DNA from: Escherichia coli
GTDB lineage: Bacteria; Pseudomonadota; Gammaproteobacteria; Enterobacterales; Enterobacteriaceae
Length of the DNA: 64,000 bases
Reading direction: 5' to 3' (one strand)
NCBI RefSeq assembly: GCF_002854065.1
Contig: NZ_CP024147.1
The notes beneath the pieces were generated by a model. It saw only the letters and a program-made list of their open reading frames with translations, was not told where the DNA came from and made no database searches. The translations under genes were made by a program, and so were the position numbers. Positions 1,239 through 18,717 of this stretch are shown in pieces; the first letter of the stretch is position 1, and the number at the start of each line of letters is the position of its first letter.

Positions 1239-1454
1239 AATATTAAGCTCCCCTGAGGTAATAAACGCCCGTGTGGCAGCGGTTCAACATAATGCCAGAT
1301 AGGCCAGGGATAGGGGAGCTTCAGTTTTTCGGCTTCTGAATTGAGAACTTTAGTGAATGGGGTGATAGAGGATATCGCTTGAATTGTGCCGAGTCTAATG
1401 GTGCTTTAAGGATTGGGATATCGGGAAAGGTGTAGCTTAATTGAATGGGTTGTA

Positions 1455-1667: not shown

Positions 1668-1771
1668 GCTGTCTTCCATTGTGGGATTATCCTGAGCTGG
1701 TGGTTGATTGCTCGTTACTACCAGCCCTTCCACATCAATGGATTGATACGTAAAAAAGTGCAGAACGTGAG

Positions 1772-2350
1772 TTATAGTGAGCGAGGACGCCCCAGTCCGC
1801 TGGGCGGCGGTACCTCACTGGCTCCGTAGTGATAGTGACCGTGCTTTTGCTCTTCTTTGGCAAGGTAGCTGATGATGTAGCGCAGGTTATCGATGGCTTC
1901 GGTATCATCGTAGTTCACCGGCTTATCAATACTGACGTCATAAGTAGGTTTGTATTCGCAGCGGTTGTAATAGCCTTCTCGTTGCGTTATTTCCCGCCAT
2001 ATTGTTCCGACTCTCTCAGCTATTGGGTAGGTAGCCTGGTTAAGGTGCCTGTCGAGATAGAACACGATATGAGCATGGCAGCCGTGGTCTACAGAGCTCT
2101 CCAGTACCCAGAAATACCCTGCCAGATTTGTGTGCTGCAGGGTGCGTTCAACCAGCATGCGTACCTCTCGCTCTGTTTCGTTCCATGAATGACGTTTAAA
2201 GCGCTCTGTACCTTTCTGATAGAACAGGTCGAGTCGGAGTGCCTGTATTTGGGAATATCGGTTCAGTAGCTGATTCAGGTGGTCATTGAGTAGAGACAGT
2301 AGAAACCAGTTCATCGTGTATCTGGGGTTAAATGGGTAAGGTGTATGCAT
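1772..2350 (-). CDS. Inovirus Gp2-like / YfjJ-YagK family prophage protein
   Basis: ORF extends to 2539, but Met at 2350 has an AAGGA box about 8 nt upstream; sequence resembles YfjJ/YagK family found next to alpA in CP4-type elements. Confidence 0.55.
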   Translation of the reverse strand: MHTPYPFNPRYTMNWFLLSLLNDHLNQLLNRYSQIQALRLDLFYQKGTERFKRHSWNETEREVRMLVERTLQHTNLAGYFWVLESSVDHGCHAHIVFYLDRHLNQATYPIAERVGTIWREITQREGYYNRCEYKPTYDVSIDKPVNYDDTEAIDNLRYIISYLAKEEQKHGHYHYGASEVPPPSGLGRPRSL

Positions 2351-2755
2351 TGATTTATCCTTTGTCAGGTGGAGTACAAAGGATTGGGATGGGATGTAAT
2401 TTTTAAGAGAAGCAGAGATACAGGGAACTGCGTATCCAGGGGAATACAGGCAGGGTTGCTTGTTGGGGAAGGGGCTATGAACAGAGTGGTATAGAAACAG
2501 GGAGTCCCCCTTAATTATACTAAAAACCCAAATGTTCATATCTGCTGTTGAACGATGCTAATGAGGTGAGCACAGGAGGATTGTAGGGTGAAAACAACAG
2601 GAATAATGCAGTAAAATGTCAGGCTTTTATCACAATTAAATCAGTAGGATATCAGTAAAAAATCAGCCATTCCTCAGCCTGTGACCCACCTCCCTCTACC
2701 TAAAAGATGCTCATGCTAATCTGTGTTCAGGAGCCAGAATTAGAGGGAGGAGACG

Positions 2756-3673
2756 ATGTTGCATTACGATATGATCCGCTATGAAATAATGTACCTAAAA
2801 ACGCTGGACAGGCATTTCAATACAGATCACTCGTTACTGTGCAGTACTTATGATAGGCCCGATGATTTTCGACGCTTGATCTCTCAGATACTTGAACGGC
2901 ATTTTCTTGGCGATCAGGACAGAATCAAAATTGCGCGGAAAACACTTAAAGAATGGGCTGACCTGCAACTGATTGATAAAGAATATTTTGATTGTTTCAA
3001 AGGCACACCAAGAGCATCGTGGTTTGCTCACCATTATATTTTTGAATACCCAGTATTACCTGCAGGGTTGAAACTTGGTGGGTTGGGGAATGACGTCGGT
3101 TGTTCAGGTGGTTTTAATTCTCTTTTAATGAACGATAATATCTTCACAAATCTTGATTTCTCTAATTTGAATATCGACCTGGACGATATAGATTGGGACC
3201 TGATAACAAATCCACAGGCCACTGCTTCGAAAAAAACGAAACGCGTTTTCTCCCGATTTTATCTGAACGCGGGAGCAAGTACCGATCTGTACAACCCCAC
3301 TCCGGTAACTGAGCGTGAACTCATCAATGGTGTGATGAGGTACATTGATGAAGCACCATGCTCACTTGGAGATAAGATCACTTATTTCAAAAAACTGCAT
3401 GAGCGCTGGCTTGAGCAATATGATTTTTTTCTAACAGATTTTGACTGGATGTCACGTGATGATGAAACTCAGTTAGTATATCTCTGGGACTATCTCAAAG
3501 GAAAGGGACGAATAGCGAGCTATCTTCGCCCTTATAATACGTCTATGCGTTATGACATGATTATTGCGGCTATGGATGTGTGGAACGCCCAACCTGAAGA
3601 GAAGCTGGAGTTTATTGAGAAGATGAAACATGCCTGGCAGGCAGCGAAATCTTACCGGAAATCTGCTAAATAG
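2756..3673 (+). CDS. Hypothetical protein (305 aa), island cargo, no recognised domain
   Basis: Long uninterrupted ORF with an acidic, Asp-rich central segment (NLNIDLDDIDWDL); convergent with the 158-aa gene and the Gabija operon. Confidence 0.5.
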   Translation: MLHYDMIRYEIMYLKTLDRHFNTDHSLLCSTYDRPDDFRRLISQILERHFLGDQDRIKIARKTLKEWADLQLIDKEYFDCFKGTPRASWFAHHYIFEYPVLPAGLKLGGLGNDVGCSGGFNSLLMNDNIFTNLDFSNLNIDLDDIDWDLITNPQATASKKTKRVFSRFYLNAGASTDLYNPTPVTERELINGVMRYIDEAPCSLGDKITYFKKLHERWLEQYDFFLTDFDWMSRDDETQLVYLWDYLKGKGRIASYLRPYNTSMRYDMIIAAMDVWNAQPEEKLEFIEKMKHAWQAAKSYRKSAK

Positions 3674-4035
3674 CGTTGTGATCGCAGTGATGTCTTGGTC
3701 TGATTTCTCAATGTAGTCATGAATCTGAGTCGACCCAGGGTCCTCTAACTATCTTTTCCTTGTCCCGTTAGGTACAAGCACATACTGTTAAAGATTAATA
3801 TGGCGGGGTATGGACGTCGGAGCTATGCCTACCTTTTAGATCGTTTGCTTCTGACTCGAAGCTTACAAGCTAGCTGATCTGAAGGTCCACTGTGAGCGAG
3901 GAGCGGACACCACGACTCACCAATAACTTGCTGCCCGCTTACGACCCAAAACCACCTATTGTATGTTAATTAATCTAGCAAACAAATGTTTAGCTTTTTA
4001 TCCGGCGAATGAAGCAAGAGAAATTGAACCCATTG

Positions 4036-4512
4036 CTAAGTATTACTGGGATTATTAAAAGGGATAATACTGGCCAATCCGTCATCTACATCAAGACCAT
4101 AGGCAACTGCTATTTCTGCCACAGAGGTACCACACTTTTTTCGCAGTTTAAAAAGCGCTCGCTCAAGCATAGATACTTGCACAGGATGATCAAATCGGAT
4201 GAACTGAGGGGAGCCAACACTGTCACCGAATTCTTGGCATGCCTTTCTCATTTTCCTTAATTGATTTGCTAAATATGAATCGCTCGGTAAACCTTGTAGG
4301 ATTTTAGTCAATTCAGATCTAATGCTGATAACACTCTGAATGCAATGACTAGTATCCTCCATATCGACAGGATTGAAAAGAACTCGCTTGTCCTCAAGAA
4401 AAATGACGATCTTCTTCGCTTCGTCAGCTTCTATTATTGGAGCATTCCACTGAATCCCGAATATAGGGCAGCTAAGGCCTGTAATATTTTTATAGATTCG
4501 TTCAAATTTCAA
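4036..4512 (-). CDS. Hypothetical protein (158 aa), apparent TTG start with strong Shine-Dalgarno
   Basis: AAGGAG box about 6 nt upstream of TTG at 4512..4510; same strand as and downstream of gajA/gajB; no recognisable motif. Confidence 0.5.
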   Translation of the reverse strand: MKFERIYKNITGLSCPIFGIQWNAPIIEADEAKKIVIFLEDKRVLFNPVDMEDTSHCIQSVISIRSELTKILQGLPSDSYLANQLRKMRKACQEFGDSVGSPQFIRFDHPVQVSMLERALFKLRKKCGTSVAEIAVAYGLDVDDGLASIIPFNNPSNT

Positions 4513-4689
4513 AACTCACTCCTTTGATGGACACATAACGCCTATACAGTCATGATGAGAAACGGACTCGGTTCGAGTAATCTGTTAGATAGCATCACTC
4601 GTAACTACTGTAAAAATAGTTGCTATCATGCTTATTGTCACTATAAATATTACTTAATGTCAGTCAGTTAAGAACGATTATTATCCCCC

Positions 4690-4725
4690 ACAATATAAAA
4701 TGTGTGTGGGGGCTATTTTTTCCAA
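4690..4725 (+). terminator. Putative rho-independent terminator (plus-strand orientation)
   Basis: Stem CCCCCACA/TGTGGGGG with about 10-nt loop followed by CTATTTTTT; lies between the 70-aa and 158-aa minus-strand ORFs. Confidence 0.45.
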
Positions 4726-4738
4726 GAGGTAGGCTTCA

Positions 4739-4951
4739 TCAAAGATAAACTACATGAGAAGAACGCCTTAACTTGCTCAAATGGATTGTGTTACAACAGT
4801 CTTGGTAACGTTTGCTATTGGCACATAGCGGGTCTTCAACCCAGTTAGCTCGCCCATTCTGTGCAAGTAGTGGACAATGAATGAAAAGATATTGGGTCGG
4901 ATTAACCTTGCGAAGGCCATCTAAGTCTGTGACGAACATTTCTTCAAGCAT
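4739..4951 (-). CDS. Small Cys-containing hypothetical protein (70 aa)
   Basis: ATG preceded by GAGGG about 7 nt upstream; four Cys residues; directly downstream of gajB; could be non-coding. Confidence 0.3.
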   Translation of the reverse strand: MLEEMFVTDLDGLRKVNPTQYLFIHCPLLAQNGRANWVEDPLCANSKRYQDCCNTIHLSKLRRSSHVVYL

Positions 4952-5085
4952 CTGAGGCCCTCAGCTCGCACCTAGAATTTTAATTTTGATGCATTTTGCC
5001 TTAGCTTGAGCATTGGAATGTGGCCTGATAACCGGTGTTTTCTTTTACTGGCCGTCCACAGACTCGATGACGCATTTATTCCCGA

Positions 5086-6903
5086 CTACCTTAAACCTGC
5101 CCCTCTCATTCGCTCCTCCAGTTCATCCAGAAATGGGGAACGCCCTAGACGCATAGGGCCGTAGCGACCATCAACAAAACCGGAATACAGCATATGCACC
5201 TCGTCCCGTGCGCGGGTCAGCCCCACATAGAAAAGACGTCGGCTTTCACGCAGCTTCTCTGGCGTCTCATTACGCCACGGCAAATTCCCCAGATCTAAGC
5301 CGACCATGATAACCACGTCATATTCGCAACCTTTGGCTGAGTGAAGTGTCAGCAAATTGAGGTGCTCAGGTGAACCGTCACGACCACCTAGGCTCGTGAT
5401 ATCCAACATCGCTAACGCACCGCCTTCGGCAAGTGCTGCAGTCATGCGATCTAGTTGCTCAGCCTGATCAGAAAGCGTTGGTTCAGTTGCCAGCAGGGAA
5501 TCAACGAGACCGTTGCGCAACGACGCGACAAAATCGGATGCAGAATGTTGGTCGGCACGAAGTGCCCAAAGTAGCCTGGTTAACTCCTGCCCCTTACTCC
5601 GGGCGCATGCATCATCCAGCCTTGCCCGATGAAATGCCAGATAACGGTCTATAAGTCCGCGCAGTTGAGGGCGCCCGATACGCCAACCGCCAGCACACCA
5701 TGCTGCGCAATCCTCCACCCAGCTCGTCAAGGCAACTTTGCGATAAGGTGCTGCGGTATCCACACGAATGTAATCAAAACCGCTAGCTGTCACCGCATCG
5801 GCCACAACATCGCCGGCACGGTAGTCCTTGTACAGAATGGCGATATCACCCAGTGTTCGGCCCGGCTTAGCAGCCAACGCAGCAGGAATAATCTGCTCGA
5901 CAGCATAGACAGCCTGATCCCCCAAGCCATCCGGACACAGCTGGAACGCAATGGTTGTCTGGCGGTTTGGGTCGTTTGCGCGATAACCACGAACCTCACC
6001 CAACACCATCTCCGATGCATTCACGATGTCCGCTCCTGATCTATAGTTCAACTGGAGCCGGACTGTTTCAACGTCTCTCCTGCCTGCCAGTTCTAGTAGT
6101 AACGCACCATCGGCACCAGTGAAACCGTAAATAGATTGGTCTGCATCACCCACTGCAAATAAGCGTACGCCTCCCTCGAAAGCCAGACGTTTGACCATAC
6201 GATGGAGTGCCACGCCCAAATCTTGATATTCATCTACCGCAAGGATCGGAAATTTCGCCTGTACTAGGGGCAGAACCCAATCATGCTCAATTATCAGACG
6301 CTGACCAAATATCACCATATCGTCGTAGTCTATCAGCCCTTGCTGCCGCAATGCAGCTTCGTAGGCCTCGGCCCATGCAGCGAGTTCCTCCTCTGTACGC
6401 CAGGCAACGCTGTTGCGATTCAACACCGAACGGCGATGCCGTCCGAGATCAATAGCCTTATAGGGATGGTTTGCGCCAAAGAGACGGTCACCAGATTGTC
6501 GAAGTAACCGTTCGCTCTCGCGCTGAGACGCTACTGACAGCGGAAATGGGATTGGCAGATCGGCCAGTCGCCCATAGGGCATCAACAGATGGCGCAAGCA
6601 GAACCCATGAACGGTTCCAATAAAGAGATTCGGTGCCTCTCTAAGCCCCAGCGCTTCGAGACGACGGGTTAGCTCGCGTGCGCATTCTTGGCTATATGTG
6701 ATACATGCCGCACCACGTGGAGCTTGAACATCCTCAGCTAGGATTCGTGCCAGCTTCAGCACAAGCGTCTTTGTCTTACCACTCCCCGGGCCCGCGAGCA
6801 CCACGCAGTGTCCCTGGGAGTGATACGCGGATAACTGGCCCGGATTCCCGGCCAGCTCGGCAGCCTGAGCTAAGTAGGCTGCACTGACACTACGTGACGG
6901 CAT
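5086..6903 (-). CDS. gajB: Gabija GajB-like UvrD/PcrA-family helicase
   Basis: Walker A VLAGPGSGKTKT, DEYQD box (LAVDEYQDLG) and further UvrD-like motifs; proposed start MPSRSV overlaps gajA stop by about 14 bp; longest ORF extends to 7005, so start is uncertain. Confidence 0.75.
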   Translation of the reverse strand: MPSRSVSAAYLAQAAELAGNPGQLSAYHSQGHCVVLAGPGSGKTKTLVLKLARILAEDVQAPRGAACITYSQECARELTRRLEALGLREAPNLFIGTVHGFCLRHLLMPYGRLADLPIPFPLSVASQRESERLLRQSGDRLFGANHPYKAIDLGRHRRSVLNRNSVAWRTEEELAAWAEAYEAALRQQGLIDYDDMVIFGQRLIIEHDWVLPLVQAKFPILAVDEYQDLGVALHRMVKRLAFEGGVRLFAVGDADQSIYGFTGADGALLLELAGRRDVETVRLQLNYRSGADIVNASEMVLGEVRGYRANDPNRQTTIAFQLCPDGLGDQAVYAVEQIIPAALAAKPGRTLGDIAILYKDYRAGDVVADAVTASGFDYIRVDTAAPYRKVALTSWVEDCAAWCAGGWRIGRPQLRGLIDRYLAFHRARLDDACARSKGQELTRLLWALRADQHSASDFVASLRNGLVDSLLATEPTLSDQAEQLDRMTAALAEGGALAMLDITSLGGRDGSPEHLNLLTLHSAKGCEYDVVIMVGLDLGNLPWRNETPEKLRESRRLFYVGLTRARDEVHMLYSGFVDGRYGPMRLGRSPFLDELEERMRGAGLR

Positions 6904-8674
6904 CGCAGATATACTCCAGTGCTTCACGAATGTAATCCGGGCATACATCCTCCGACACCGAGGGTGCCAGCGCTTGGGCGAACCGCCCTTTGCCAATTCG
7001 CTCAATCAGTTTCAACAACCGGACATTATCAAGCTGGTCCGTGTCATCCACCCACGCCTGTATCCTGTTCAGAGTAGCTCGTCTAGGAGACAATTCCTGC
7101 TCGATAACCAACTTCATGGCTTCGCCCAGTCCACCGGTAAACAGCTCTGGCTCCAGAGTGGTCTCATTGACGAAGCATCCAAAATCTCCGGCACGTGCAA
7201 TCACCTCCTCGGTAGTCATATCATCATGATCAACATCGCTCTCAAGCACGTCTAAGATATTGATAAATCTCTTACGAACCAGCGGCTCTCCATCCTCCTC
7301 AGGATCGCGGTCTGTCAGAATCACATGTGGAATATTGAGTCCCCGCGGCCCTAGGAGCTTCACATACGGAGTGAAATTTGTTCCACCGATCGAGCACACC
7401 GTGATCCCAAGCATATCTAGGGGAATATTAAGAGCATCAGCGAATGCTGGGACAAGAAAGCGTTCAGCATCCCCTTCCACCAAGATCACCCCACGTGAAA
7501 AGAATATTTCGCCGCGAGTGACATCGATATAGCGCTGCAGATCATCTTCGTCCCGCGGCGTAAACGGTGCGTTTGCCGTTGAAACCGCAATCGTCTTCCC
7601 TCCCTCCGGATCATGGCGCAGCAAAACGATGGATCTGATTGGTGTGACGCTGGCGATATGCGGGGAATGGGTGGTCAGGATCGTTGTCAACGGTGTTCCT
7701 TCATCACCATTGTCTCCGTCAGTCCCTAGGAAATAACGGTAAACCAGGCGCTGTACGTGCGGATGTAGGTGCGCTTCCGGCTCCTCGACTACGAAAAACG
7801 TATGGTCTCGTTCTCCGTCATTAACAAGACGATCAAGTTCGAGGCTTTTTAGGGCAAGAAAAATCAGATTAGCTGTCCCCAGACTGGCATCGCCAATGCC
7901 ACGAATGCCACTATCAAGCAGCAAACGCAGGCTACGTAGCAGCGCATCAACGCGAGTCGGTGCAAGTCCGAGCGATACCGGAACGGCATGTTGCTCACCT
8001 GCGATAGCTATCAACCTTTCGCTAATTCGTTCGGCTGTCGCTGCCACCTCATCATGATCAGCCAGTTCCCGTTGAGCCTCATCAACTTGGGTTTGAATCT
8101 CCTCACGAGTCTCGTCGTCCAGAGATGCGGACAGTTCTTCAATAAGCGGTCTTAAGGGTGAATTACGCCAGCTTGAAAGGTCCTTCTCGGCATCACGCAA
8201 CGCGCCTTGAACATCAATGGGCAACATACGGCGAAAGGCACCACCAATATGCATGTCAGGATCAGCTCCACCGAAGATCACATACTCATAATCTTTTAAC
8301 GATTCAGGAGCTCGATTTAACGCGGTTTTGGGCTGAAAGCGGTAGGTAAGACGGGCCACCATCGGAGGCCCCGGATTTAGGACACAGTCATTCAGATGAG
8401 CCATCAATCGGGGATCGTCAGTGAACTCAGTAAGATCCACTGAAATTTCGATGGTCTCCCCCAGTTTGTCTTCGCCCAATCCATCCCAAAAATGTTCAAA
8501 ACCCAGTTGACGGTCACGCTCAGACAACCCTGGGTCAAGAATCAGCTGCAGGCCGCGAATAAAATTGCTCTTGCCAACCTTGTTTTCACCAACAATAACA
8601 ATACTCTCACCCGTTTCAACATCAACATCGGAGAAGTTGGCGAAATTAATTAACCGGATTCGGGAAATCCGCAT
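6890..8674 (-). CDS. gajA: Gabija GajA-like OLD-family ATPase/TOPRIM nuclease
   Basis: 594 aa; N-terminal ABC ATPase P-loop (VGENKVGKSN); C-terminal TOPRIM-like acidic motifs (ILVEGDAE, ILTDRDPEE); immediately upstream of and overlapping the UvrD-like helicase gene. Confidence 0.8.
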   Translation of the reverse strand: MRISRIRLINFANFSDVDVETGESIVIVGENKVGKSNFIRGLQLILDPGLSERDRQLGFEHFWDGLGEDKLGETIEISVDLTEFTDDPRLMAHLNDCVLNPGPPMVARLTYRFQPKTALNRAPESLKDYEYVIFGGADPDMHIGGAFRRMLPIDVQGALRDAEKDLSSWRNSPLRPLIEELSASLDDETREEIQTQVDEAQRELADHDEVAATAERISERLIAIAGEQHAVPVSLGLAPTRVDALLRSLRLLLDSGIRGIGDASLGTANLIFLALKSLELDRLVNDGERDHTFFVVEEPEAHLHPHVQRLVYRYFLGTDGDNGDEGTPLTTILTTHSPHIASVTPIRSIVLLRHDPEGGKTIAVSTANAPFTPRDEDDLQRYIDVTRGEIFFSRGVILVEGDAERFLVPAFADALNIPLDMLGITVCSIGGTNFTPYVKLLGPRGLNIPHVILTDRDPEEDGEPLVRKRFINILDVLESDVDHDDMTTEEVIARAGDFGCFVNETTLEPELFTGGLGEAMKLVIEQELSPRRATLNRIQAWVDDTDQLDNVRLLKLIERIGKGRFAQALAPSVSEDVCPDYIREALEYICDAVT

Positions 8675-9229
8675 TACTGCCTCCCTATCTTTTTAATTAT
8701 CTTCCCAAAATAAGAGTAGAACTCAAACCACAAGAGACTGCCTGGCACGACCAAATTTGCTGAGGGATACGGTTGCGATCAGAACGGTACTTGGTCATTG
8801 CACATTTTTTACTGTTCAAATCTATGCGTCCAACGAAGGTAACAACCTATCGTAACAGAGAGCTAAAACATGCCTATGATCCATCTCACATAGTGGCTGT
8901 TTGTCGTCACAGTCTTACAATGCACTCTGTGCAATGCATTACTCCCATTGGCCGACCAGACCGATGAACTGGCACGGCGGTGTGCTTCACACACTCTAGC
9001 GATACGGCACAATATCAACAGACACTGACTGGCCTCGTCAAAATAGTACAGTACAGACTTAGCACCGTCTGACTTTGGCGCTAAGCGGAGATCTTTCAGT
9101 CTTGGACTGCACAAAGTCCTTTGCGTTAATCTAAAATTCCAAATAATTTCAGACAGATATTATCTCATTGAATCCCCGCCTTCCTGACTGGATCGCGGGG
9201 TTTTTAATTTTTCACGCTGAGACTTCTGT

Positions 9230-10105
9230 ATGAATAAACCTGACGGCCTTCAGGCCTTTGAACAACCGCTTGCGTCGCTTCCGTGCACACTTCGCCAGCT
9301 TATTCTTGAACGTATCCAGAACCTGACCCATTACGAGCCGGTGATTGGAATCATGGGCAAAAGTGGTACAGGTAAATCCTCTCTCTGCAACGAACTTTTC
9401 CGGGGCGAGGTGTCCCCGGTGAGTGACGTGAATGCCTGTACTCGCGACGTGCTGCGTTTCCGGTTACGCAGTGGGCGTCACAGCCTGGTGATTGTTGATT
9501 TACCGGGCGTGGGCGAAAACGGGCAGCGGGATCAAGAATACCGTGCCCTGTACCGTCGAATCCTGCCGGAGCTGGACCTGGTGCTGTGGGTCATTAAGGC
9601 CGATGATCGGGCACTAACCGTGGACGAGCAGTTCTGGCACGGTGTGATGCAAACTTACAGGCAAAAGGTACTGTTCGTGATTAACCAGGCCGACAAAATC
9701 GAACCCTGCCATGAATGGGATACCCTCACCAGCAAACCTTCACCGCACCAACTGGGAAATCTTAAAGCGAAGCAGGCTGCGATTATGGTGATGTTTAAAC
9801 CGCATCATCCGGTCTGTGTGGTGTCAGCCCGCACTGGATGGGGCATTGAGGAGATGGTGGCAGCCATGATGCGCTGTCTGCCTGACCGCGCCACCAGCCC
9901 GGTGGTGACACAACTGCACAGGAAACTCTGCACAGAGCCGGTAAAGTCGCAGGCTCGTGACAGTTTCGGTGAAGCTGTGGGCCGGGTTTTCGATACCGCA
10001 GAATCATCTTCGTTCCTGTCTACATCGCTGAAAACGGTGATTCGTAGCGTGCGTGATGCGGTGGTGTCGGTCGCACGGGCCGTCTGGGACTGGATATTCT
10101 TCTGA
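9230..10105 (+). CDS. Prophage-associated GTPase, YkfA/YfjP/YeeP family
   Basis: 291 aa; P-loop GKSGTGKSS and DLPG motif; this family is typical of CP4-type islands. Confidence 0.75.
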   Translation: MNKPDGLQAFEQPLASLPCTLRQLILERIQNLTHYEPVIGIMGKSGTGKSSLCNELFRGEVSPVSDVNACTRDVLRFRLRSGRHSLVIVDLPGVGENGQRDQEYRALYRRILPELDLVLWVIKADDRALTVDEQFWHGVMQTYRQKVLFVINQADKIEPCHEWDTLTSKPSPHQLGNLKAKQAAIMVMFKPHHPVCVVSARTGWGIEEMVAAMMRCLPDRATSPVVTQLHRKLCTEPVKSQARDSFGEAVGRVFDTAESSSFLSTSLKTVIRSVRDAVVSVARAVWDWIFF

Positions 10106-10348
10106 TATCGCAATTTTCTCTGCGAATGATGAACTTGTTGTTAATGATGTGTTGATTGTGGACACGTCCTTTCCATTGCGTTTTATCATCAACAAAATCA
10201 GGAGAAGCATCATTATCTGTCAGACGAGCGCTCACAAGGCCGGGCTGCTCATAAAAAATAGTTCCGATGTTGTCCATACCCTGTCCACCCCTTCCTTTAA
10301 AGTAATCATTATTAATTCAGAGAGTTAACTTCTCAGGAGAAATCTTTC

Positions 10349-11065
10349 ATGACGCTTCAGGAGCGGCGACATGACCGGCTTGCCGTCAGGTTGTCGTTGA
10401 TTATCAGCCGCCTGGTGTCCGGTGAAACTCTGTTTATTCGCAAACTGGCAACTGAATTCGGGGTGTCAGAGCGCACGTTACGTCGTGACTTTCGGGAACG
10501 TCTGATGTATCTCGACCTGGATTATTACCAGGGGCAGTGCAGTCTGCGCTCGGATATTCACAGTACGCGGCAGGAAATAGATATTCTGACCTTTGCTCAC
10601 CGTACGGGGCTGGCCGGGGTTTTCCCGGGCTTTGACCGGCGACTGGTCAGCAGCCTGCTGGACTGTGATGATCGACCCTGTCTGGTATGGCATCAGGACA
10701 GACCTCATCCCCCGGCAGGAAAGCTCTCCTTCTACAGGCTGGTCAGAGCTATTTCTGAATGTCAGCGCATCACCATTCTGACTGAAGGGGAGCGTCATGA
10801 GGCCGTTGCACCTTACCGGCTAATCGCTCTGGACGGTTACTGGTATCTGGTCGCTGAACATAACAGGCAATTACGTGTCTTCCGGCTGGATGAGATTCAT
10901 CTGGTAAGGCCATCGCGGGAAACATTTATTCGCAGTGAGCTTCTCTATCAGCTGTCGGAGGATAAACATTTTATCTCTGCCTTACCTCATTTCCGTTTTA
11001 TTCAGCAGTCGCTGAATTCATTTTCTCCCTCAGAAAGTCGGGGGCAATCCGGACAAACTGATTAG
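10349..11065 (+). CDS. WYL-domain transcriptional regulator, YfjR-like
   Basis: 238 aa; N-terminal HTH ([16 protein letters not shown]), C-terminal YWYL-containing segment ([11 protein letters not shown]). Confidence 0.7.
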
Positions 11066-11100
11066 AGATGGTCTCCATAATTAAATGTAAGGTTAATCTA

Positions 11101-11553
11101 ATGAAAGAATTGAAATTGTTGTCTTTACTGCCAGTCATATTGTTCCCCTTACTTATCGCAGGTAATGCTCACGCAGCACGTCCTTATAGCGGATTCCTGC
11201 CTGCAGCAGTGAATAATAAGAGTGGGAATATATTCTGGTGTGATGCCCACCGCCAGGTCAGAAAACTGTGTACAGCGACGGAAGTGGATTCAATGGGATG
11301 GTTTATTGTTGTTCGCTCGAAACCTTCCAGAGATTGTCCGGGGGGCCTTTGGGGGTGGATCACTCCCAGTAAAGACGATGTAGCAACAGGGTATACCATT
11401 ACGCCAGGTAAAGAATTCAATCTCACCATGAAGGATATGTGCAGTCCCGATATGAAAGTAACGTTCCGCCCGAATAAAAAGGACCCTCGTTATGACGATC
11501 TCGTCGGGATTTATGCAGGGAAAGAAGCTTTTCGCTACAAACAAATAAAATAA
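11101..11553 (+). CDS. Secreted or periplasmic hypothetical protein
   Basis: Signal-peptide-like N-terminus MKELKLLSLLPVILFPLLIAGNAHA; start taken at internal Met. Confidence 0.5.
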   Translation: MKELKLLSLLPVILFPLLIAGNAHAARPYSGFLPAAVNNKSGNIFWCDAHRQVRKLCTATEVDSMGWFIVVRSKPSRDCPGGLWGWITPSKDDVATGYTITPGKEFNLTMKDMCSPDMKVTFRPNKKDPRYDDLVGIYAGKEAFRYKQIK

Positions 11554-11624
11554 TCCAACTGTTTTTTCGTTACTTTATTGTTTTAAACAACAAAAGCCTT
11601 ATTACATGATTTGAGGACAACATT

Positions 11625-12098
11625 ATGCGACTGCCTTACGTAATATTTACATTAGCTATGCTGGCTTCTGTATCAACAGCACAGGCTATTCCCAATATGT
11701 GGACGAGTGGTTTTGGGATGGGCGTGACCGAATATATTATTACCAGCCCGGAGAAGGTGGTGTTTAATCTGAACTGTACTGGCAATCCGGATGCGCAGAA
11801 TATTCTGCAACACGGTGTTGATCTCACCCTGCCTGATGGAACATCAGTAAGCTCTCATGACGACGGAACGGAAATCACGGTCGTCATGGATAACAGTCAG
11901 TATCCGTTACCGTCATTCCTCGGCTGGCGAAACGGTGACAATGCCTGGGTGTCATTTATTGACGCCCTGAGCCAGTCTGCGAATTTTGATGTTTACGTCA
12001 ACGATAAAAAAGTCGGCACCTTCAGTCCGGGGCTGAAGAATACGCAGAAAGAGCTGTCTGACCTCAGTGAGTGCCGGACCACACACTACAGCGATTAG
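11625..12098 (+). CDS. Secreted or periplasmic hypothetical protein
   Basis: 157 aa; signal peptide MRLPYVIFTLAMLASVSTAQA; followed by a clear intrinsic terminator. Confidence 0.55.
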   Translation: MRLPYVIFTLAMLASVSTAQAIPNMWTSGFGMGVTEYIITSPEKVVFNLNCTGNPDAQNILQHGVDLTLPDGTSVSSHDDGTEITVVMDNSQYPLPSFLGWRNGDNAWVSFIDALSQSANFDVYVNDKKVGTFSPGLKNTQKELSDLSECRTTHYSD

Positions 12099-12153
12099 TT
12101 ACTTACATTTCAGACCTCTCCAGCCCGCTACGCACCAACACCAGATAGCAACA

Positions 12154-12190
12154 GGCCATGCTCCTTCGGGAACATGGCCTTTTTTGTTTT
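12154..12190 (+). terminator. Rho-independent terminator
   Basis: GGCCATGCTCCTTCGGGAACATGGCC hairpin followed by a T-run. Confidence 0.6.
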
Positions 12191-12218
12191 TATTTGATTA
12201 TCAGATAAGGAGTTAGCT

Positions 12219-13040
12219 ATGCGACTAGCCAGCCGCTTTGGCCGTATAAACCAGATACGCCGTGACCGGCCTCTGACCCACGAAGAGCTGATGAGTCATG
12301 TACCCAGCGTGTTCGGGAGTGACAAGCATGAATCTCGTTCAGACAGGTACACCTACATCCCGACCATCACCATCCTCGAAAGCCTGCAGCGGGAAGGCTT
12401 TGAGCCGTTCTTTGCCTGCCAGACAAAAGTTCGCGACCAGAGCAAGCGGGAGCACACCAAGCACATGCTTCGACTGCGTCGCTCCGGGCAACTGACCGGG
12501 CATCAGGTGCCGGAAATCATTCTACTTAACAGCCATGACGGCTCATCAAGCTACCAGATGCTGCCGGGCCTGTTTCGTGGCGTCTGTACCAACGGCCTGG
12601 TCTGCGGTCAGTCATTCGGAGAAGTGCGGGTACCGCATAAAGGGAATGTTGTCGAGAAGGTGATTGAAGGGGCTTACGAAGTGCTCGGTGTGTTTGACCG
12701 GGTGGAGGAGAAGCGCGATGCAATGCAGTCACTGGCACTGCCAGAACCAGCCCGTAACGCCCTGGCGAATGCCGCGCTGAAGTATCGCTTTGGTGAAGAC
12801 CACCAGCCGGTCACGGTATCGCAGTTGCTGACCCCACGTCGCCGGGAGGACTACAGCGATGACCTGTGGACCGTATACCAGCGCGTGCAGGAGAACCTGA
12901 TGAAAGGAGGTCTGTCAGGGCGAACCGCTCAGGGGAAAAGCAGCCGCACCCGTGCTGTTATCGGCATTGACGGCGATGTGAAACTCAATCGCGCCCTGTG
13001 GATTATGGCAGAAAACATGCTCGAATTTTTCGGGCGTTAA
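12219..13040 (+). CDS. DUF932-family protein (YfjQ/YafZ-like)
   Basis: 273 aa, the same length as the K-12 prophage paralogs; sequence resembles that family. Confidence 0.65.
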   Translation: MRLASRFGRINQIRRDRPLTHEELMSHVPSVFGSDKHESRSDRYTYIPTITILESLQREGFEPFFACQTKVRDQSKREHTKHMLRLRRSGQLTGHQVPEIILLNSHDGSSSYQMLPGLFRGVCTNGLVCGQSFGEVRVPHKGNVVEKVIEGAYEVLGVFDRVEEKRDAMQSLALPEPARNALANAALKYRFGEDHQPVTVSQLLTPRRREDYSDDLWTVYQRVQENLMKGGLSGRTAQGKSSRTRAVIGIDGDVKLNRALWIMAENMLEFFGR

Positions 13041-13070
13041 ACAACCGTTCCGGCATAAGGAGATAGTTTA

Positions 13071-13511
13071 ATGGATACCCACAACCCTGAGTTTGCTGAG
13101 CAGGCAGCAATTACTGCCTCGGTAGTCCCTGACGAGTTACGTATCGGCTTCTGGCCAAAGCGCTTTGGATCTATCCCACAATGGATAACCCTTGAGCCCC
13201 AAATATTTGGCTGGATGGATCGTCTGTGCGCTGATTACAGCGGCGGCGCCTGGAGCTTTTACACACTCAGCAACGGCGGCGCATTTATGGCTCCGGAGCC
13301 CGACGGTGAGAAGTGGACGTTGTTCAACCCGATGAATGGAAACGATGCGGAGATGAGCGGAGAGGCTGCCGGTATAGCGGCCTGCCTGATGGCATACAGC
13401 CACCACGCTTGTCGCACCGAATGTGACGCGATGACTGAGCACTATTATCGCTTACGTGACTACGCGCTAAACCATCCGGAATGCAGCGCCATTATGTATC
13501 TAATCGACTGA
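13071..13511 (+). CDS. Antirestriction protein, ArdB/KlcA family (YfjX/YafX-like)
   Basis: 146 aa; resembles the CP4-type antirestriction paralogs; position between DUF932 and RadC-like genes matches that module. Confidence 0.7.
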   Translation: MDTHNPEFAEQAAITASVVPDELRIGFWPKRFGSIPQWITLEPQIFGWMDRLCADYSGGAWSFYTLSNGGAFMAPEPDGEKWTLFNPMNGNDAEMSGEAAGIAACLMAYSHHACRTECDAMTEHYYRLRDYALNHPECSAIMYLID

Positions 13512-13523
13512 GGAATACCTGAC

Positions 13524-14066
13524 ATGAATATCGCATTATCCCCGGTATCATCGCAGCCTGAACTCTTTCCGCTGGCGGTTATGGCCCAGCATAGTTGCCT
13601 GCTCCCCGCGACCTCCGGATTGACACCTTATGCCCAACGGACCATTCGACGTGCTATCAACCTGCTGGATAAATATCTGCGCCAGCCCGGCATGTCCTTT
13701 ACCTCAAGCACGGCTGCCCGTGACTGGCTTCGGTTACAGCTGGCAGGACAAGAACGGGAAGTGTTTATGGTGCTCTATCTCGATAACCAGCACCGTTTAC
13801 TGGAGAGTGAAACGCTATTTGCCGGTTCGGTTAACCATGTCCAGGTCCATCCCCGTGAGGTGGTGAAGTCAGCGCTTCGCTTCAATGCTGCTGCTGTTGT
13901 GCTGGCGCATAACCATCCATCCGGTGATCCGGAGCCCAGCCAATGTGACCGCAACATTACGGGCAGGCTTAAAGAAGCGCTGGCACTGGTTGATGTGAAC
14001 ACTCTCGATCATCTGGTTATCGGTTCAGATGGAATTGTGTCGTTTGCAGAGCGAGGCTGGATATGA
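13524..14066 (+). CDS. RadC-like JAB-domain protein (YeeS/YfjY/YkfG family)
   Basis: HNHPSGDPEPS JAMM-like motif; start may be the internal Met at about 13581. Confidence 0.75.
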   Translation: MNIALSPVSSQPELFPLAVMAQHSCLLPATSGLTPYAQRTIRRAINLLDKYLRQPGMSFTSSTAARDWLRLQLAGQEREVFMVLYLDNQHRLLESETLFAGSVNHVQVHPREVVKSALRFNAAAVVLAHNHPSGDPEPSQCDRNITGRLKEALALVDVNTLDHLVIGSDGIVSFAERGWI

Positions 14067-14076
14067 GGGCACTTCA

Positions 14077-14418
14077 ATGAAATCTACTGACTCAGAGAAC
14101 GATTCATTTCTCAAGTGGGGTCTGAATCGTAATGTGACACCTTGCTTTGGCGCTCGTCTGGTACAGGAGGGAAACCGGCTGCACTATCTGGCTGACCGGG
14201 CCAGTATCACCGGTAAGTTCAGCGAAGCAGAATGTCTTAAGCTGGATATGGCATTCCCGCATTTTATTAGCCAGATGGAATCGATGCTGACTACTGGTGA
14301 AATGAATCCTCGCCATGCCCACTGTGTCACCCTGTACCACAATGGTTTCACCTGCGAAGCCGATACCCTTGGCAGTTGCGGCTACGTATACATCGCCGTT
14401 TACTCCACCCATCGTTAA
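14077..14418 (+). CDS. CbeA/YeeU/YfjZ-family antitoxin (type IV TA)
   Basis: 113 aa from internal Met; [23 protein letters not shown] is close to the YeeU sequence. Confidence 0.8.
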
Positions 14419-14438
14419 CTACTTTCACAAGAGCAAAT

Positions 14439-14780
14439 ATGAAAACTCTACCTGCAACAAATCCGCAGGCGGCGAAGCTATGTCTGTCGCCCGTGGCTGT
14501 CTGGCAAATGCTGCTTGCACGCCTGCTGGAACAACATTATGGCCTGACACTCAACGACACGCCATTCAGTGATGAAACGGTAATTCAGCAACATATCGAT
14601 GCCGGTATATCTTTGGCCGATGCCGTTAATTTTCTGGTGGAAAAGTACGGGCTGGTTCGTATTGATCGCAGGGGATTCGACTGGCAAGAACAGTCCCCAT
14701 ATCTGCGGGCAGTCGATATTCTGCGGGCGCGACAGGCAACTGGTTTATTGAAAAGAAATCGTATTAGCGCGGCACGGTGA
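14439..14780 (+). CDS. CbtA/YeeV/YkfI-family toxin (type IV TA)
   Basis: 113 aa from internal Met; directly follows the cognate antitoxin; sequence resembles the YeeV/YpjF family. Confidence 0.8.
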
Positions 14781-14783
14781 ATA

Positions 14784-15017
14784 TTGGGAATAGCCTTCCT
14801 GATTCACACTGCAGCTTTCCTTACTTATTTAATTTACTCATTCCAAAAAGCACCTGCCGATGCTGGTTGGTGCTTTTACTTATATGGACGAAATATCATG
14901 CAAATAGAAGCTGTAATTTTAACTGGGCACATTATCGCAAGTACAATCCGGGAATGCTGGGCCGTCGTTGTTGATGGTTTTGACGCATGCGGCGAACAAG
15001 CTTATGATCCAGCTTAA
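14784..15017 (+). CDS. Small hypothetical protein following the toxin (YeeW-like position)
   Basis: 77-aa ORF starting 4 bp after the toxin stop; coding status uncertain. Confidence 0.3.
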   Translation: MGIAFLIHTAAFLTYLIYSFQKAPADAGWCFYLYGRNIMQIEAVILTGHIIASTIRECWAVVVDGFDACGEQAYDPA

Positions 15018-15043
15018 TTTCTTTTCCTCATGAAGGGACGGGT

Positions 15044-16051
15044 ATGGGCAACAGAATGTGGATGATTCGCGGTGACGGCGGCAAGCTCTATGACGATTTT
15101 CGCGATAAGCAAATTGTAGGCATCGGTTGGTCTCAGCTGGCTCCATTAGTCAAACCCGGCCTGTCCCGAGCCCAGTTACTCGCCTTATACCAGGAGGCAG
15201 ATCCCTTAACAAAGCTGGGAACAGCCCGTTCTGGTGCATCGCAGGTCTGGCGTTTTGTGAATGAGATCCAAAAGGGTGATTGGGTTATTACCTATTCGCC
15301 AGCCAACCGTACTTATTTGCTAGGCAAAGTCACATCCGACTTCCAATATCATCCTGAATGGGTGGAAGAGGGGATGGGGATCGCTCGGCAGGTTAAATGG
15401 AATACTCAAGAAATCGACCGCGATAGACTGTCTGTTGCTACCAAAAACACATTGGGTTCTACGCTGACGGTTTTTCAGCTTCCAGAATATGCGCTAGAAG
15501 AGCTTTTGCAGGATAAGAAACCCACTATAGATGTAATTACTCAGAATCCAGTTGCAATGGATGAAGATGAGGTCGTTTCTGATCCGCTTCGCGATATGGA
15601 AATGCTGGCGTTTGAGGGTATCAAAGATCGTATTAACTCTCTTGATTGGGACGAGATGCAAAATCTTGTTGCCGGAGTTTTACGCAGTATGGGCTATAAA
15701 ACGCAGGTTTCACCTGCGGGAGCCGATCGGGGTAAAGACATCATTGCTTCACCTGATGGGTTCGGTTTTGAAAATCCGCGTATTATCGTTGAGGTAAAGC
15801 ACCGCAGGGAACAGATGGGAAGCCAACAGATACGCAGCTTTATCGGCGGTCGCCATAAAGACGATCGCGGGCTTTATGTCAGTACAGGGGGTTTTACGAA
15901 AGATGCTCGATATGAAGCCGACCGTTCGACGATACCACTGACGCTCTGGACACTTGATGATCTCGTCCGTGCGCTTATTGAGAACTACGAACAAGTTGAT
16001 ATCGAGACTAAACTTTTGGTGCCTCTGAAGAAAACTTTCCTGCCTGCCTGA
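15044..16051 (+). CDS. Mrr-cat (PD-(D/E)xK) restriction-endonuclease-like protein with an uncharacterised N-terminal domain
   Basis: C-terminal half matches the Mrr catalytic core pattern (GADRGKDIIA...IIVEVKHRRE...QQIRSFIGG...GLYVSTGGFTKDA); N-terminal ~160 aa does not look like the K-12 Mrr N-terminal domain. Confidence 0.65.
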   Translation: MGNRMWMIRGDGGKLYDDFRDKQIVGIGWSQLAPLVKPGLSRAQLLALYQEADPLTKLGTARSGASQVWRFVNEIQKGDWVITYSPANRTYLLGKVTSDFQYHPEWVEEGMGIARQVKWNTQEIDRDRLSVATKNTLGSTLTVFQLPEYALEELLQDKKPTIDVITQNPVAMDEDEVVSDPLRDMEMLAFEGIKDRINSLDWDEMQNLVAGVLRSMGYKTQVSPAGADRGKDIIASPDGFGFENPRIIVEVKHRREQMGSQQIRSFIGGRHKDDRGLYVSTGGFTKDARYEADRSTIPLTLWTLDDLVRALIENYEQVDIETKLLVPLKKTFLPA

Positions 16052-16211
16052 ATCTTGCTTTGATAGCCATATCGGTGTTCTACTGGTATGGCTTTATACC
16101 CACTTGCAATGTCTATTTTTTATACGGACTTTAACTTGTGGGTACAAGTGTGGGTATAACTATTTATTCCTATTTATAAACTGCATTGATATCAGTCTGT
16201 TAGGTGTGAAA

Positions 16212-16248
16212 TTCGAGTCCGGCCTTCGCACCTTCGCACCTTCGCACC
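16212..16248 (+). repeat. Degenerate tRNA 3' end repeat (leuX-like), probable island attR
   Basis: TTCGAGTCCGGCCTTCGCACC resembles the T-arm/acceptor 3' end of tRNA-Leu (leuX); TTCGCACC is triplicated and ends in CCA; no full tRNA is present. Confidence 0.55.
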
Positions 16249-16450
16249 ATCGGAACATCAATAGACATCAACGGACGTTTTTTTATGACTGAAATCCGCG
16301 CCACACAAGGCTTTTCGCTATTTTTCGCTCAACCTAAGTCAACCTACATCAACTTACTGATGTGGATACAGCTACAGCTGCGGCTATACCCCGATTCGAT
16401 AATGTTTGTACCCACACAAAACCCTTGAAAGGCTACAAGGCTGAAATTGT

Positions 16451-16669
16451 CTAAACCATAGAGATGATTTTTATGATCCAGTCTTTCTCTTGTTGAGATA
16501 GTTCCAGTTTGCTCACTCGTGTTAAGAAGGTATTGATCACCTGAACATCCGAATTGGTGAGCCTATTTAATAGAGCGGGTGGTATACCTTTACTAACAAT
16601 CGCTTTGCGGTGACTTTCGTAGTTTTTATTACTCATTGTTGATCCTAAAAAATCATTGTATGGCGGCAT
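16451..16669 (-). CDS. Small hypothetical protein (72 aa)
   Basis: ORF only; no recognisable motif. Confidence 0.3.
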   Translation of the reverse strand: MPPYNDFLGSTMSNKNYESHRKAIVSKGIPPALLNRLTNSDVQVINTFLTRVSKLELSQQEKDWIIKIISMV

Positions 16670-17014
16670 TGATCGTTTCCAGCAACCTTTACTTACTCAC
16701 TTCGAACTGCATCCTCGTAGACTGTTCCACTACAATAATCGAAAAGGCGCGGATGTCCATTCAGGTATCCCGCTAATACGTATAGCAATAACAATGGCTT
16801 ATGCGGCGCGCGCTGTTCACCCTTGTGCCAGATTTTTATATTGGCAATTGCCTGCTGTAGCGATTTACTGGAAGCTATTGATATCCCTGGCAGTGAAATA
16901 ATTGCGATCATGCTCGCAAATTTTCTGCTGTTCAAGCCTGCAAGTGAAGATATATTACCTTGATCTCATTTGTTTTTTTGCTGCCTGTTCTGAGAACGTA
17001 TAAGGACATTCTCC

Positions 17015-17665
17015 ATGAATAAACTCCCTGATCATCTTCCGCGGCGGTATATCATCGAAGCTATCCATTTATGGGATGCGGGAGAAACTCATCAGTTCCA
17101 GCCTGCGCGGTTGTATGAGATTGAATATCATGGCCGACGTTACCCCTCGAAGGCGATTGCTGGCATCGCAGCGACATTGATGACGGGGACGCAATTTACC
17201 CCTGCGGATTTCACCGGCGGAATAAAATCTAAATGTGTCAAGCTACTCATAGAGCAGGGATTTCATATTCATCTGGATAAAGCCGCTGCGGCTCCCATAG
17301 CCGACGTTCTGTTCCCGGATGAGTTGCCGTCGCAGGAGACATACCTTGAAGGTGCGGCGATAAAGGTGACAGTAAACCGCTATGAACGCGATAAAAAGGC
17401 CCGAGATAAAGCGGTCGAACATCATGGATGCCAGTGCAACGTATGCGGTGTTGATCTGGTGAAGATCTATGGTGATATCGCTGAAGGCTTTATCCATGTG
17501 CATCACCTGGTGCCGCTGTCAGCCATTAAAGAGGATTACCAGCTGGATCCAGTTAATGATTTGCTGCCTGTGTACCCTAATTGCCATGCGATGTTGCACC
17601 GACGCAAACCACCGTTTACGCCGGAGCAGTTAAAAGCGCTGATGGATGCGAATAAATCAAATTAA
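17015..17665 (+). CDS. HNH endonuclease-domain protein (McrA-like, putative type IV restriction nuclease)
   Basis: C-terminal HNH signature HHLVPLS...DLLPVYPNCHAMLH with upstream CQCNVCG zinc-binding pair; N-terminal ~110 aa uncharacterised. Confidence 0.65.
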   Translation: MNKLPDHLPRRYIIEAIHLWDAGETHQFQPARLYEIEYHGRRYPSKAIAGIAATLMTGTQFTPADFTGGIKSKCVKLLIEQGFHIHLDKAAAAPIADVLFPDELPSQETYLEGAAIKVTVNRYERDKKARDKAVEHHGCQCNVCGVDLVKIYGDIAEGFIHVHHLVPLSAIKEDYQLDPVNDLLPVYPNCHAMLHRRKPPFTPEQLKALMDANKSN

Positions 17666-17672
17666 TGAACGC

Positions 17673-18653
17673 TCACCTTTCGCGCCAAAACTGCAAAATT
17701 GCTTCTACAAACTTGTCAGAAATAATCCCCCGACGGGCTGCCGTGCTGAAATGACTGCTTCGCAGTGCCGTCGTCCAGTTCTCCGGTGACCGGTACGCTG
17801 AACCGTAATATCCCGTGCTTAAATCGTCCGGGTCTTCATCAGGCGCGTTCGTCAGTCCTCTTTCACCTTGTTGCTGGAAGTCGACGAAAATAATATTGGC
17901 TAAAACATTATTTTGATAATTGCCATAAATAACTTCATACGCATGAGGGAAATTTTCTTTCCAGTACCAGGTGGTATCGCCGCAAAACCACGGTGCGTCA
18001 GTAATATTATTAAGCTGAGAATGGTATTGTTTTAGATCCCTACGAAAGGCTTCAACCATATGATTAAAGTGTTGAGGGTGTGACGCGTAGTCACTGGTCA
18101 TTAAGTCAAATTCGCCTTGCATCCAGCATACGCCGAGGAATTTGTTATGCGGATTTTTTGCCAGTGCGGCTCGCGTTCTGCTGACTAAATCCTGGTATAG
18201 CGGAGTATCCGTTCCCCAACGACAAGCATCATGGCTGGCTCCGTGCCGTTCTGAATATGTTCCTTCGCTGCCCGCGGTAAAAGCCGATCCGCCACGGCAA
18301 CACGGAACGATGAGAACCCCTGCATTATCAGGAATAAAGGGCAGTAATTTCCGTGCTATATGCAGTGCCTGGCCAACGGTGCCGTACTGTGTTTGATGAT
18401 TCGTTGCCAGAGGATGGTGATAACCCTGCATATCCTGAACATCGTGTGGGCAGTGAGTCAGTGGAATAATGTCGTTAAAGTGACATGACGGGCCTCCGGG
18501 ATGCGTATGCGCAAATCTCGCTAATTGTTTAATTCTGGGATGAGGCGCATCTTCCCTGTCCGGTAATGGCAGTCCTTCGCCATACGCCATGGCATTAGAC
18601 TGACCAGCAACGGTAAGAATATAGTAATAATCAGGCGATATTATTGCGTTCAT
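17673..18653 (-). CDS. nanS: NanS, 9-O-acetyl-N-acetylneuraminate esterase
   Basis: Matches K-12 NanS (YjhS) from MNAIISPDYYY; conserved position in the nanCMS operon. Confidence 0.85.
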   Translation of the reverse strand: MNAIISPDYYYILTVAGQSNAMAYGEGLPLPDREDAPHPRIKQLARFAHTHPGGPSCHFNDIIPLTHCPHDVQDMQGYHHPLATNHQTQYGTVGQALHIARKLLPFIPDNAGVLIVPCCRGGSAFTAGSEGTYSERHGASHDACRWGTDTPLYQDLVSRTRAALAKNPHNKFLGVCWMQGEFDLMTSDYASHPQHFNHMVEAFRRDLKQYHSQLNNITDAPWFCGDTTWYWKENFPHAYEVIYGNYQNNVLANIIFVDFQQQGERGLTNAPDEDPDDLSTGYYGSAYRSPENWTTALRSSHFSTAARRGIISDKFVEAILQFWRER

Positions 18654-18717
18654 ATAAATTTCGCGTAATTGAAATGACAAATTGATAGCAGGGCCCCTTT
18701 ACCGGGGCCCTGAAGCG

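Follow-up and report, generated by a model that had tools for sequence, protein, structure and literature searches.

What does a broken copy of a tRNA 3′ end mark when it stands at the far side of a genomic island: the end of that island, or the edge of all foreign DNA at the site? The question is raised by a short motif in a stretch of the Escherichia coli chromosome (64,000 nucleotides of contig NZ_CP024147.1, called the window throughout) that belongs to the leuX–fim region, with an HNH endonuclease gene, nanS, nanM, nanC, fimB, and fimE downstream of the motif. leuX is a classic hotspot for islands. An initial annotation took the motif to be a degenerate tRNA-Leu 3′ end, resembling that of leuX, in which an 8-bp unit occurs three times in tandem before CCA, and interpreted it as an attR left by site-specific integration at a tRNA gene and as the probable right boundary of an island, in which case everything upstream in the window would be island DNA. 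Read directly, positions 16212-16249 consist of TTCGAGTCCGGCC, three copies of TTCGCACC, and a final A. Tandem Repeats Finder reported the repeat at 16223-16252 (period 8, 3.8 copies, 95% matches), and the triplication is thus confirmed, with the A that completes CCA at 16249 and an imperfect fourth unit, CCATCGGA, after the array. The first 17 nt of the motif (TTCGAGTCCGGCCTTCG) agree at 17 of 17 positions with the T-loop, T-stem, and acceptor strand of leuX, so the annotation had named the right tRNA. After this match leuX reads GCACCA and the motif reads CACC; the motif is without one G, and CACCA follows the 17-nt match after a one-base deletion. A search with the full 85-nt sequence identified the source as tRNA-Leu(CAA) adjoining ahr, which is leuX, and ruled out leuZ. 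Within the 64-kb window the 12-mer GTCCGGCCTTCG occurs once, against 0.21 occurrences expected even with one mismatch allowed. ARAGORN called no intact tRNA gene in the window, no Rfam family matched at the motif, and no second leuX 3′ copy that might form a true outer boundary was present in the 64 kb.

The DNA to the left of the motif can be followed beyond the window in a sister strain, NZ_CP178662, which is 100% identical to window positions 1-16248 (16,248 nt). In that strain ahr, leuX, and a P4-family tyrosine integrase gene are located about 22 kb to the left of the window start. The intact leuX has the same orientation as the motif and lies, with the adjacent integrase gene, about 38 kb upstream of it and outside the window; the island from leuX to the motif measures about 38.4 kb and ends at the motif. 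Because leuX and the integrase gene sit there in a strain of 100% identity, the window DNA upstream of the motif is island DNA, and leuX and an integrase gene would be expected at the same place in the window's own strain, as read across from its sister. The proposal of a site-specific integration at a tRNA gene is supported in the same way, by the discovery of tRNA and integrase at the other end of the island. The integrase of NZ_CP178662 contains arm-binding, central, and catalytic domains (Pfam PF13356, PF22022, and PF00589, respectively), all three of which it has in common with P4 Int, and the two proteins are 58% identical. The features of the window are collected in Table 1. They include a complete Gabija anti-phage system at 5086-8674, which makes the island a defence island. 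The Mrr-type nuclease at 15044-16051 is a full-length match to the PADLOC candidate defence family PDC-S02. Outside the window, the half of the island nearer to leuX encodes in NZ_CP178662 (L003, 4025281-4039705) a type I restriction-modification system, an AAA ATPase, and a prokaryotic argonaute adjoining a PD-(D/E)XK nuclease.

Table 1. Features of the window to the left of, at, and to the right of the leuX-derived motif.
Feature	Position	Strand	Basis or remark
Right-hand 16.2 kb of leuX-integrated island	1-16211	+	100% identity to NZ_CP178662, annotation, Pfam, PADLOC
GajB (Gabija)	5086-6903	-	very strong PADLOC match
GajA (Gabija)	6890-8674	-	very strong PADLOC match
GTPase, usual island-end module	9230-10105		annotation/Pfam
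DUF932, island-end module	12219-13040		annotation/Pfam
Antirestriction, island-end module	13071-13511		annotation/Pfam
RadC, island-end module	13524-14066		annotation/Pfam
YeeU/CbtA, island-end module			annotation/Pfam
Mrr-type nuclease, last island gene	15044-16051		Pfam Mrr_cat
Candidate arm-type integrase binding site GTGGGTATA, inverted	16095-16103	-	distal (P) arm of island
Candidate direct arm-type site GTGGGTACA	16138-16146	+	left of core
Candidate direct arm-type site GTGGGTATA	16150-16158	+	left of core
Left part of core, TTCGAGTCCGGCC	16212-16224	+	equals leuX T-loop and T-stem 3′ strand
Three tandem TTCGCACC and final A	16225-16249	+	single-G leuX acceptor 3′ strand and CCA, 8 bp repeated
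Fossil integrase-side (P′) arm of older island, same integrase family	16250-16440	+	homology to stretch from leuX to int ATG
Degenerate leuX terminator hairpin and T-run	~16264-16287		in fossil arm
10-bp tandem repeat, TCAACCTAAG TCAACCTACA TCAACTTAC	16329-16357		in fossil arm
Degenerate direct arm site GTGGATACA	16362-16370		in fossil arm
Degenerate direct arm site GCGGCTATA	16380-16388		in fossil arm
Inverted arm site	16407-16415		in fossil arm
Remnant cargo of older island or variable region	16441-17672	.	annotation of homologous loci; extent varies among genomes
Restriction-endonuclease pseudogene fragment (phosphorothioate-DNA-binding)	~16729-16878	-	annotation of homologous loci
HNH endonuclease gene	17015-17665	+	annotation of homologous loci; weak Pfam HNH match below curated cut-off
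nanS, first gene of K-12-shared segment (nanS-nanM-nanC-fimB...)	17673-18680	-	homology and annotation

To the right of the motif, conserved backbone does not follow directly; a fossil arm and remnant cargo occupy 16250-17672. The fossil arm (16250-16440, about 190 bp) is approximately 80% identical to the stretch of NZ_CP178662 that runs from the leuX CCA to the integrase start codon and takes in the leuX terminator hairpin, a T-run, and repeats just before the ATG. A terminator scan made no call at the decayed leuX terminator of the fossil arm, and no integrase ORF appears among the window ORFs or in the annotation between 16250 and nanS. The 10-bp repeats in the arm may be bound by an accessory factor, for instance an excisionase. 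TCAACC repeats also occur at the homologous position behind leuX. When E. coli genomes were searched with an artificial probe of eight units, the fossil arm was found in 882 of 5,426 (887 records), or about one sixth. leuX followed by a related arm was found in 306 genomes, and in the single one examined (H167/L020) an intact integrase gene comes after the arm. The stretch to the right of the motif is full in 861 genomes and cut back to varying extents in many others. K-12 holds merely small patches of 16441-17672, and its homology is continuous (97.8%) from about window position 17670, the 3′ end of nanS. nanS itself is an intact ORF of 335 codons in the window and in L006; in most related genomes examined (compare L002, L005, and L007-L012), the annotation gives it as a truncated pseudogene preceded by a small ORF. 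Because homology to an island arm lies immediately right of the motif and homology to K-12 only begins near 17670, the motif is the point at which one island abuts what is left of an older one, and the variable region continues beyond it. The right boundary proposed in the initial annotation therefore stands as the end of the leuX island and falls as the edge of foreign or variable DNA.

The arms on both sides of the motif resemble the attachment site of phage P4, for which the record X51522 annotates a 20-bp attP core, GAGTCCGGCCTTCGGCACCA, with a pair of direct arm repeats away from the integrase, a second pair toward it, and an inverted repeat at the start of int. Exact matches to GYGGGTAYA number four in the 64 kb, and all of them fall within 320 bp of the core (16095-16415); in the sister strain (L003) there are three in 46 kb, all just before the int ATG. 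The two direct candidate sites at 16138-16158 are 56-76 bp to the left of the core, in positions that parallel the left-arm repeats of P4 attP, and the right-hand arm has its two direct sites and the inverted site as at the P4 int start. The core is thus flanked by repeated candidate arm-type sites in the P4 arrangement, and because of this layout the junction can be described as an attP-like composite of a distal arm, a core, and the integrase-side arm of an older island. The two share the leuX core region. They differ in the arm repeat, which is GYGGGTAYA here and GGGGGCAYA in P4, in the core, which has one G in the junction and two in P4, in the array, which only the junction possesses, and in the right arm, which in the junction is decayed and without an integrase gene. 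A search of a phage collection returned no relative of the fossil arm and no P4-like free attP except that of P4 itself.

The place where the parts of the composite meet is sharply defined when genomes are compared. At least five different island ends (...aaaTTCGA, ...atgTTCGA, ...atgTTTGA, ...atgTGCGA, and ...gcggtGCGGCC) join one and the same right flank, and they turn identical only from GAGTCCGGCC (16214) or GGCC onward. The island family of the window, in turn, sits before five different right flanks: the fossil arm itself, an arm of P4 type that has an integrase gene, a K-12-like one in which the integrase is a pseudogene, and two others. Between the window and NZ_CP178662, identity is 100% on the left and 97.2% on the right, with the switch at the core. 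In none of the 5,426 genomes is leuX joined directly to the fossil-arm flank, either as an empty site or as an intermediate state, and the comparison with island-free strains that had been suggested at the outset found no island-free leuX site with this flank. An excision product (the 5′ part of leuX, the array, and the fossil arm) was not found either; the best matches were leuX followed by a related arm, and the top match among them, H167, turned out to be an active island whose integrase is intact. The joint is instead demonstrated in another way, since different islands occupy one flank and one island occupies different flanks. In strain XJ23PTE1, a search for the place where the second island ends met no additional core copy within 48 kb, in a region that is IS-rearranged.

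These observations can be weighed against two simpler accounts. A chance resemblance or an assembly artefact has a negligible probability: nothing beyond the short length of the motif speaks for it, and it would have to explain an exact 17-nt match plus CACCA, a 12-mer that is unique within the window, and an equal structure in 882 independent complete genomes. A simple attR beside the backbone, in which the motif would be the host's displaced leuX 3′ end with conserved chromosome directly to its right, agrees with the orientation, the leuX identity, and the island and integrase upstream. It is nevertheless highly improbable, given that homology to the integrase-side arm of an island, with arm-type sites of its own, fills the next 190 bp, that the following 1.2 kb vary among genomes up to the start of K-12 homology, and that no genome in the collection has leuX directly followed by 16250-17672. 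We regard as quite probable a composite attachment-site junction made of three parts: the distal arm of the newer island, a leuX core with a single G and the array, and the arm stump of an older island. The junction is therefore the attR of the new island with the former attL arm of the old island directly to its right. Of this account, the observed parts are the anatomy, the abrupt change of sequence at the core, the homologies, and the polymorphism, and from them we infer which side carries the single G, where strands are exchanged, and that slippage gave rise to the array. The leuX gene and the integrase that the composite calls for were seen in the sister strain, outside the window.

The missing G turned out to be a recurrent property of displaced leuX ends. 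Each displaced copy that was read is without one G relative to leuX, whatever arm comes next. PAI II of strain 536, a leuX island of E. coli with 18-bp direct repeats, offers a parallel, as leuX identity in its attR breaks at the corresponding position, where two bases are missing; the identity that remains is 18 bp, equal to the published repeat length. A scan of one genome per species for the single-G core found at least 120 loci in about 100 Enterobacterales species, a result that gives no ratio of single-G to GG forms among displaced copies because the searched pattern was the single-G form. None of these copies lies within a tRNA gene, and all have one unit. By our own arithmetic, about 9 chance matches to an 18-mer are expected in the scanned collection, and the stray non-enterobacterial matches may be of this kind. 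Among the sequences read individually, as opposed to the scan with its single-G pattern, the GG form was seen only in true leuX genes and in the free attP of P4. The single-G cores sit behind a few recurring island-end sequences, that of the window among them, and their right flanks differ widely, with several following the host genus (one, for example, is common to several Serratia species). Given that it is found behind recurring island ends in about 100 species, the single G is probably carried by the elements and not a product of decay. Not every element carries it, since the free attP of phage P4 has GG. The most economical interpretation of the sequences is that elements bring the single-G core with them and that strand exchange would occur at or to the right of that G. 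The account of crossover sublocations that Williams gave in 2002 reportedly agrees with an exchange at this place. The third crossover subsite of Islander, at the junction between the T and acceptor stems, also agrees with the element-borne model (PMC4383910).

Some single-G copies are longer than the core. Five loci (L072, L093, L106, L111, and L081) contain displaced leuX from the anticodon loop or variable arm onward, about 35-50 nt in length, in the single-G form. Two species among those with longer copies have a left arm in common and different right flanks. In L125 and L062 the single-G core is followed by YTACAGTTTCACC... in place of A; because of this replacement, CCA is incomplete there and identity with other junctions ends at CACC, a break that could help to place the right limit of the exchanged segment. 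A full-length leuX with a single G is present in 3 of 5,424 E. coli genomes, L017 (NZ_CP074701), L018 (NZ_CP172819), and L019 (NZ_CP077477), where ARAGORN and the RefSeq annotation still call it a tRNA. The right flanks of these genes match junctions elsewhere, L017 and L018 those of E66 and L143 and L019 those of L142 and L145. In Salmonella Infantis the same arm family is found behind a GG leuX. The genomes with a single-G leuX can be read in two ways, as what remained after an island was lost by recombination within the 17 identical base pairs left of the missing G, or as states that precede integration.

The number of 8-bp units varies among E. coli genomes. Sixty evenly spaced records were sampled from the 887 that the eight-unit probe had found. 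Three units were commonest (41 of 60 records), followed by two units in six records, four units in four, and seven, five, and one unit in one record each; the remaining six rows were partial arm alignments that begin beyond the array and give no count. The record with one unit (L013) sits on a K-12-like arm and not on the fossil arm. At least three units are present in 698 records, and the counts of seven, five, and two, along with two diverged units, were verified by reading the sequences. Counts of 1, 2, 3, 4, 5, and 7 units have thus been seen in E. coli. The count goes with the SNPs of the right flank, whatever island stands on the left. Arrays with the GACATC/T7 flank (haplotype A/T7) have two, three, or four units, those with the GACGTC/T8 flank (haplotype G/T8) have four, five, or seven, and four units are found on both. 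Because several counts occur on each flank haplotype, the number must have changed repeatedly within each, yet slowly enough to stay linked. Arrays are restricted to the fossil-arm flank; E. coli junctions on other flanks have one unit, as do all 120 junctions from other species. Only the fossil-arm flank continues with CCATCGGA, which is an imperfect copy (6 of 8 positions) of CCTTCGCA. Variant units occur in L009 and L012, and the diverged allele of L012 holds a hybrid unit, ATCGCACC.

The likeliest origin of the array, judging from its sequence context, would be replication slippage seeded by the proto-repeat CCATCGGA. The initial annotation had offered two explanations of the triplication, repeated slippage and successive recombination scars. 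The former gains support because the count spans one to seven units and changes on two flank haplotypes, and the latter does not, because the count follows the right flank and the other junctions examined have one unit. A broader proposal is that the integrase made the units, each as a recombination scar or through misregistered strand exchange between repeated CACC segments. Eight base pairs approximate the size of a tyrosine-recombinase overlap, the unit sits where attL/attR identity stops, and variants cluster at exactly that spot (GGCACCA, GCACCA, GACCA, and arrays). This proposal is very unlikely all the same, as NZ_CP178662 has one island yet four units, junctions from other species (120 of 120) and E. 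coli junctions on other flanks show a single unit, arrays are confined to the flank with the proto-repeat, and conservative site-specific recombination neither adds nor removes bases. The single G also has a competing explanation, in which it would be the defective tRNA end of the previous occupant of the site and crossover would occur to the left of the G, in the T-loop or at the T/acceptor junction. Each incoming island would then exchange a bad leuX 3′ end for a good one, creating selection for insertion and against excision. The full-length single-G leuX genes with exactly the flanks of junctions (L017/L018 and L019) are in keeping with this explanation, and it draws further on the GG of P4 attP and on the linkage of unit count to the right flank, although these last two points fit an element-borne G equally well. 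We judge it unlikely: such leuX genes occur in only three E. coli genomes, the same one-base deletion would have been needed independently on many flanks in about 100 species when it is linked instead to a few island ends, and the Salmonella Infantis arm family stands behind a GG leuX. On parsimony, the element-borne model is favored.

The composite junction would have arisen in the following manner. An older island of the same integrase family would have taken leuX first and later lost its integrase gene, so that an integrase-side arm stump of about 190 bp stayed behind. The defence island of about 38 kb would then have been inserted at leuX by its P4-family tyrosine integrase, bringing a distal arm with three candidate arm-type sites. 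Between the two arms would lie a central 19-bp leuX-like core, GAGTCCGGCCTTCG-CACCA, without one tRNA G and with its last 8 bp, TTCGCACC, present three times. Strand exchange most likely took place at or to the right of the single G, within the CACCA that ends the tRNA gene; an exchange there would leave the host GG in leuX, and the copy with a single G would always fall at the distal island end. The array would probably have arisen in the resident right flank by slippage between CCTTCGCA and the adjacent imperfect CCATCGGA, followed by gains and losses of units. Some observations sit less easily with this history. The three E. coli single-G leuX genes with junction flanks also fit a crossover to the left of the G, the five longer single-G leuX copies fit poorly if the anticodon loop is where their elements cross over, the attP of P4 has GG, and a leuX-then-flank intermediate is absent from the 5,426 genomes. 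A more far-reaching version of the element-borne model, which we consider distinctly unlikely, would make the single-G core a conserved element-borne half-site of leuX-targeting P4-family integrases, with exchange in the last bases of the tRNA gene and TTCGCACC as the overlap segment. If it were true, the array would offer alternative exchange registers, and misregistered exchange by the integrase in addition to slippage could change the count. The rare leuX alleles with a single G would record losses of islands, natural junction variation would map the crossover point of the whole integrase family, and the "displaced tRNA fragments" that delimit islands would be in part element sequence and not host sequence.

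The junction is an ordinary kind of feature whose unusual detail is the variable, tripled 8-bp unit. Precedents exist for displaced tRNA fragments, for islands in tandem, and for att sites of the P4 type (Islander, PMC4383910; P4, X51522). As in the attR of Islander and of leuX islands (PMC4383910), a leuX 3′ fragment in the orientation of the gene marks the distal end and the integrase adjoins leuX; in contrast to the usual leuX attR, the fragment is followed by the arm of another island and not by chromosome. Compared with the 120 junctions from other species, only the E. coli junction has the tandem array. The arrangement also resembles the "tandems" of Islander, in that two elements stand in series at leuX with a tRNA-fragment junction between them, and in other strains a complete second element with an integrase is found behind the island end of the window. 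In the window itself, however, the second element is a remnant of about 1.4 kb, and because it is without an integrase it departs from the tandem rule that each element have its own tRNA fragment and integrase. The array is similar to slipped-strand VNTRs in its 8-bp unit, its one to seven copies, its changes on more than one haplotype, and its occasional variant units. It differs from them in its location, a dead attachment site where it is not known to switch any gene or promoter, and in being stable enough to track haplotypes. In the literature searched, no description of the core copy-number polymorphism or of the consistency of the single-G core was found, nor any mapping of the strand-exchange position of P4-family integrases.

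For the delimitation of islands, the motif bounds one island, the Gabija-carrying defence island, and not the variable region. An island caller that takes the first tRNA fragment as its stop would therefore overlook both the fossil arm and the cargo remnant. The junction also illustrates turnover at the leuX hotspot, where islands have been swapped at a single core and an old arm has persisted in 882 of 5,426 E. coli genomes. The fossil-arm flank could be typed by its 8-bp array, and a single-G core that stays the same across many genera suggests where P4-family integrases may exchange strands. A further occupant of the hotspot was noted in E. coli E66 (L015), where a P4-like satellite prophage (psu, delta, sid, and alpha; 16843-27790), interrupted by IS100, is located between leuX and an older integrase remnant. 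The distal end of this satellite is common to 14 genomes, all of one lineage.
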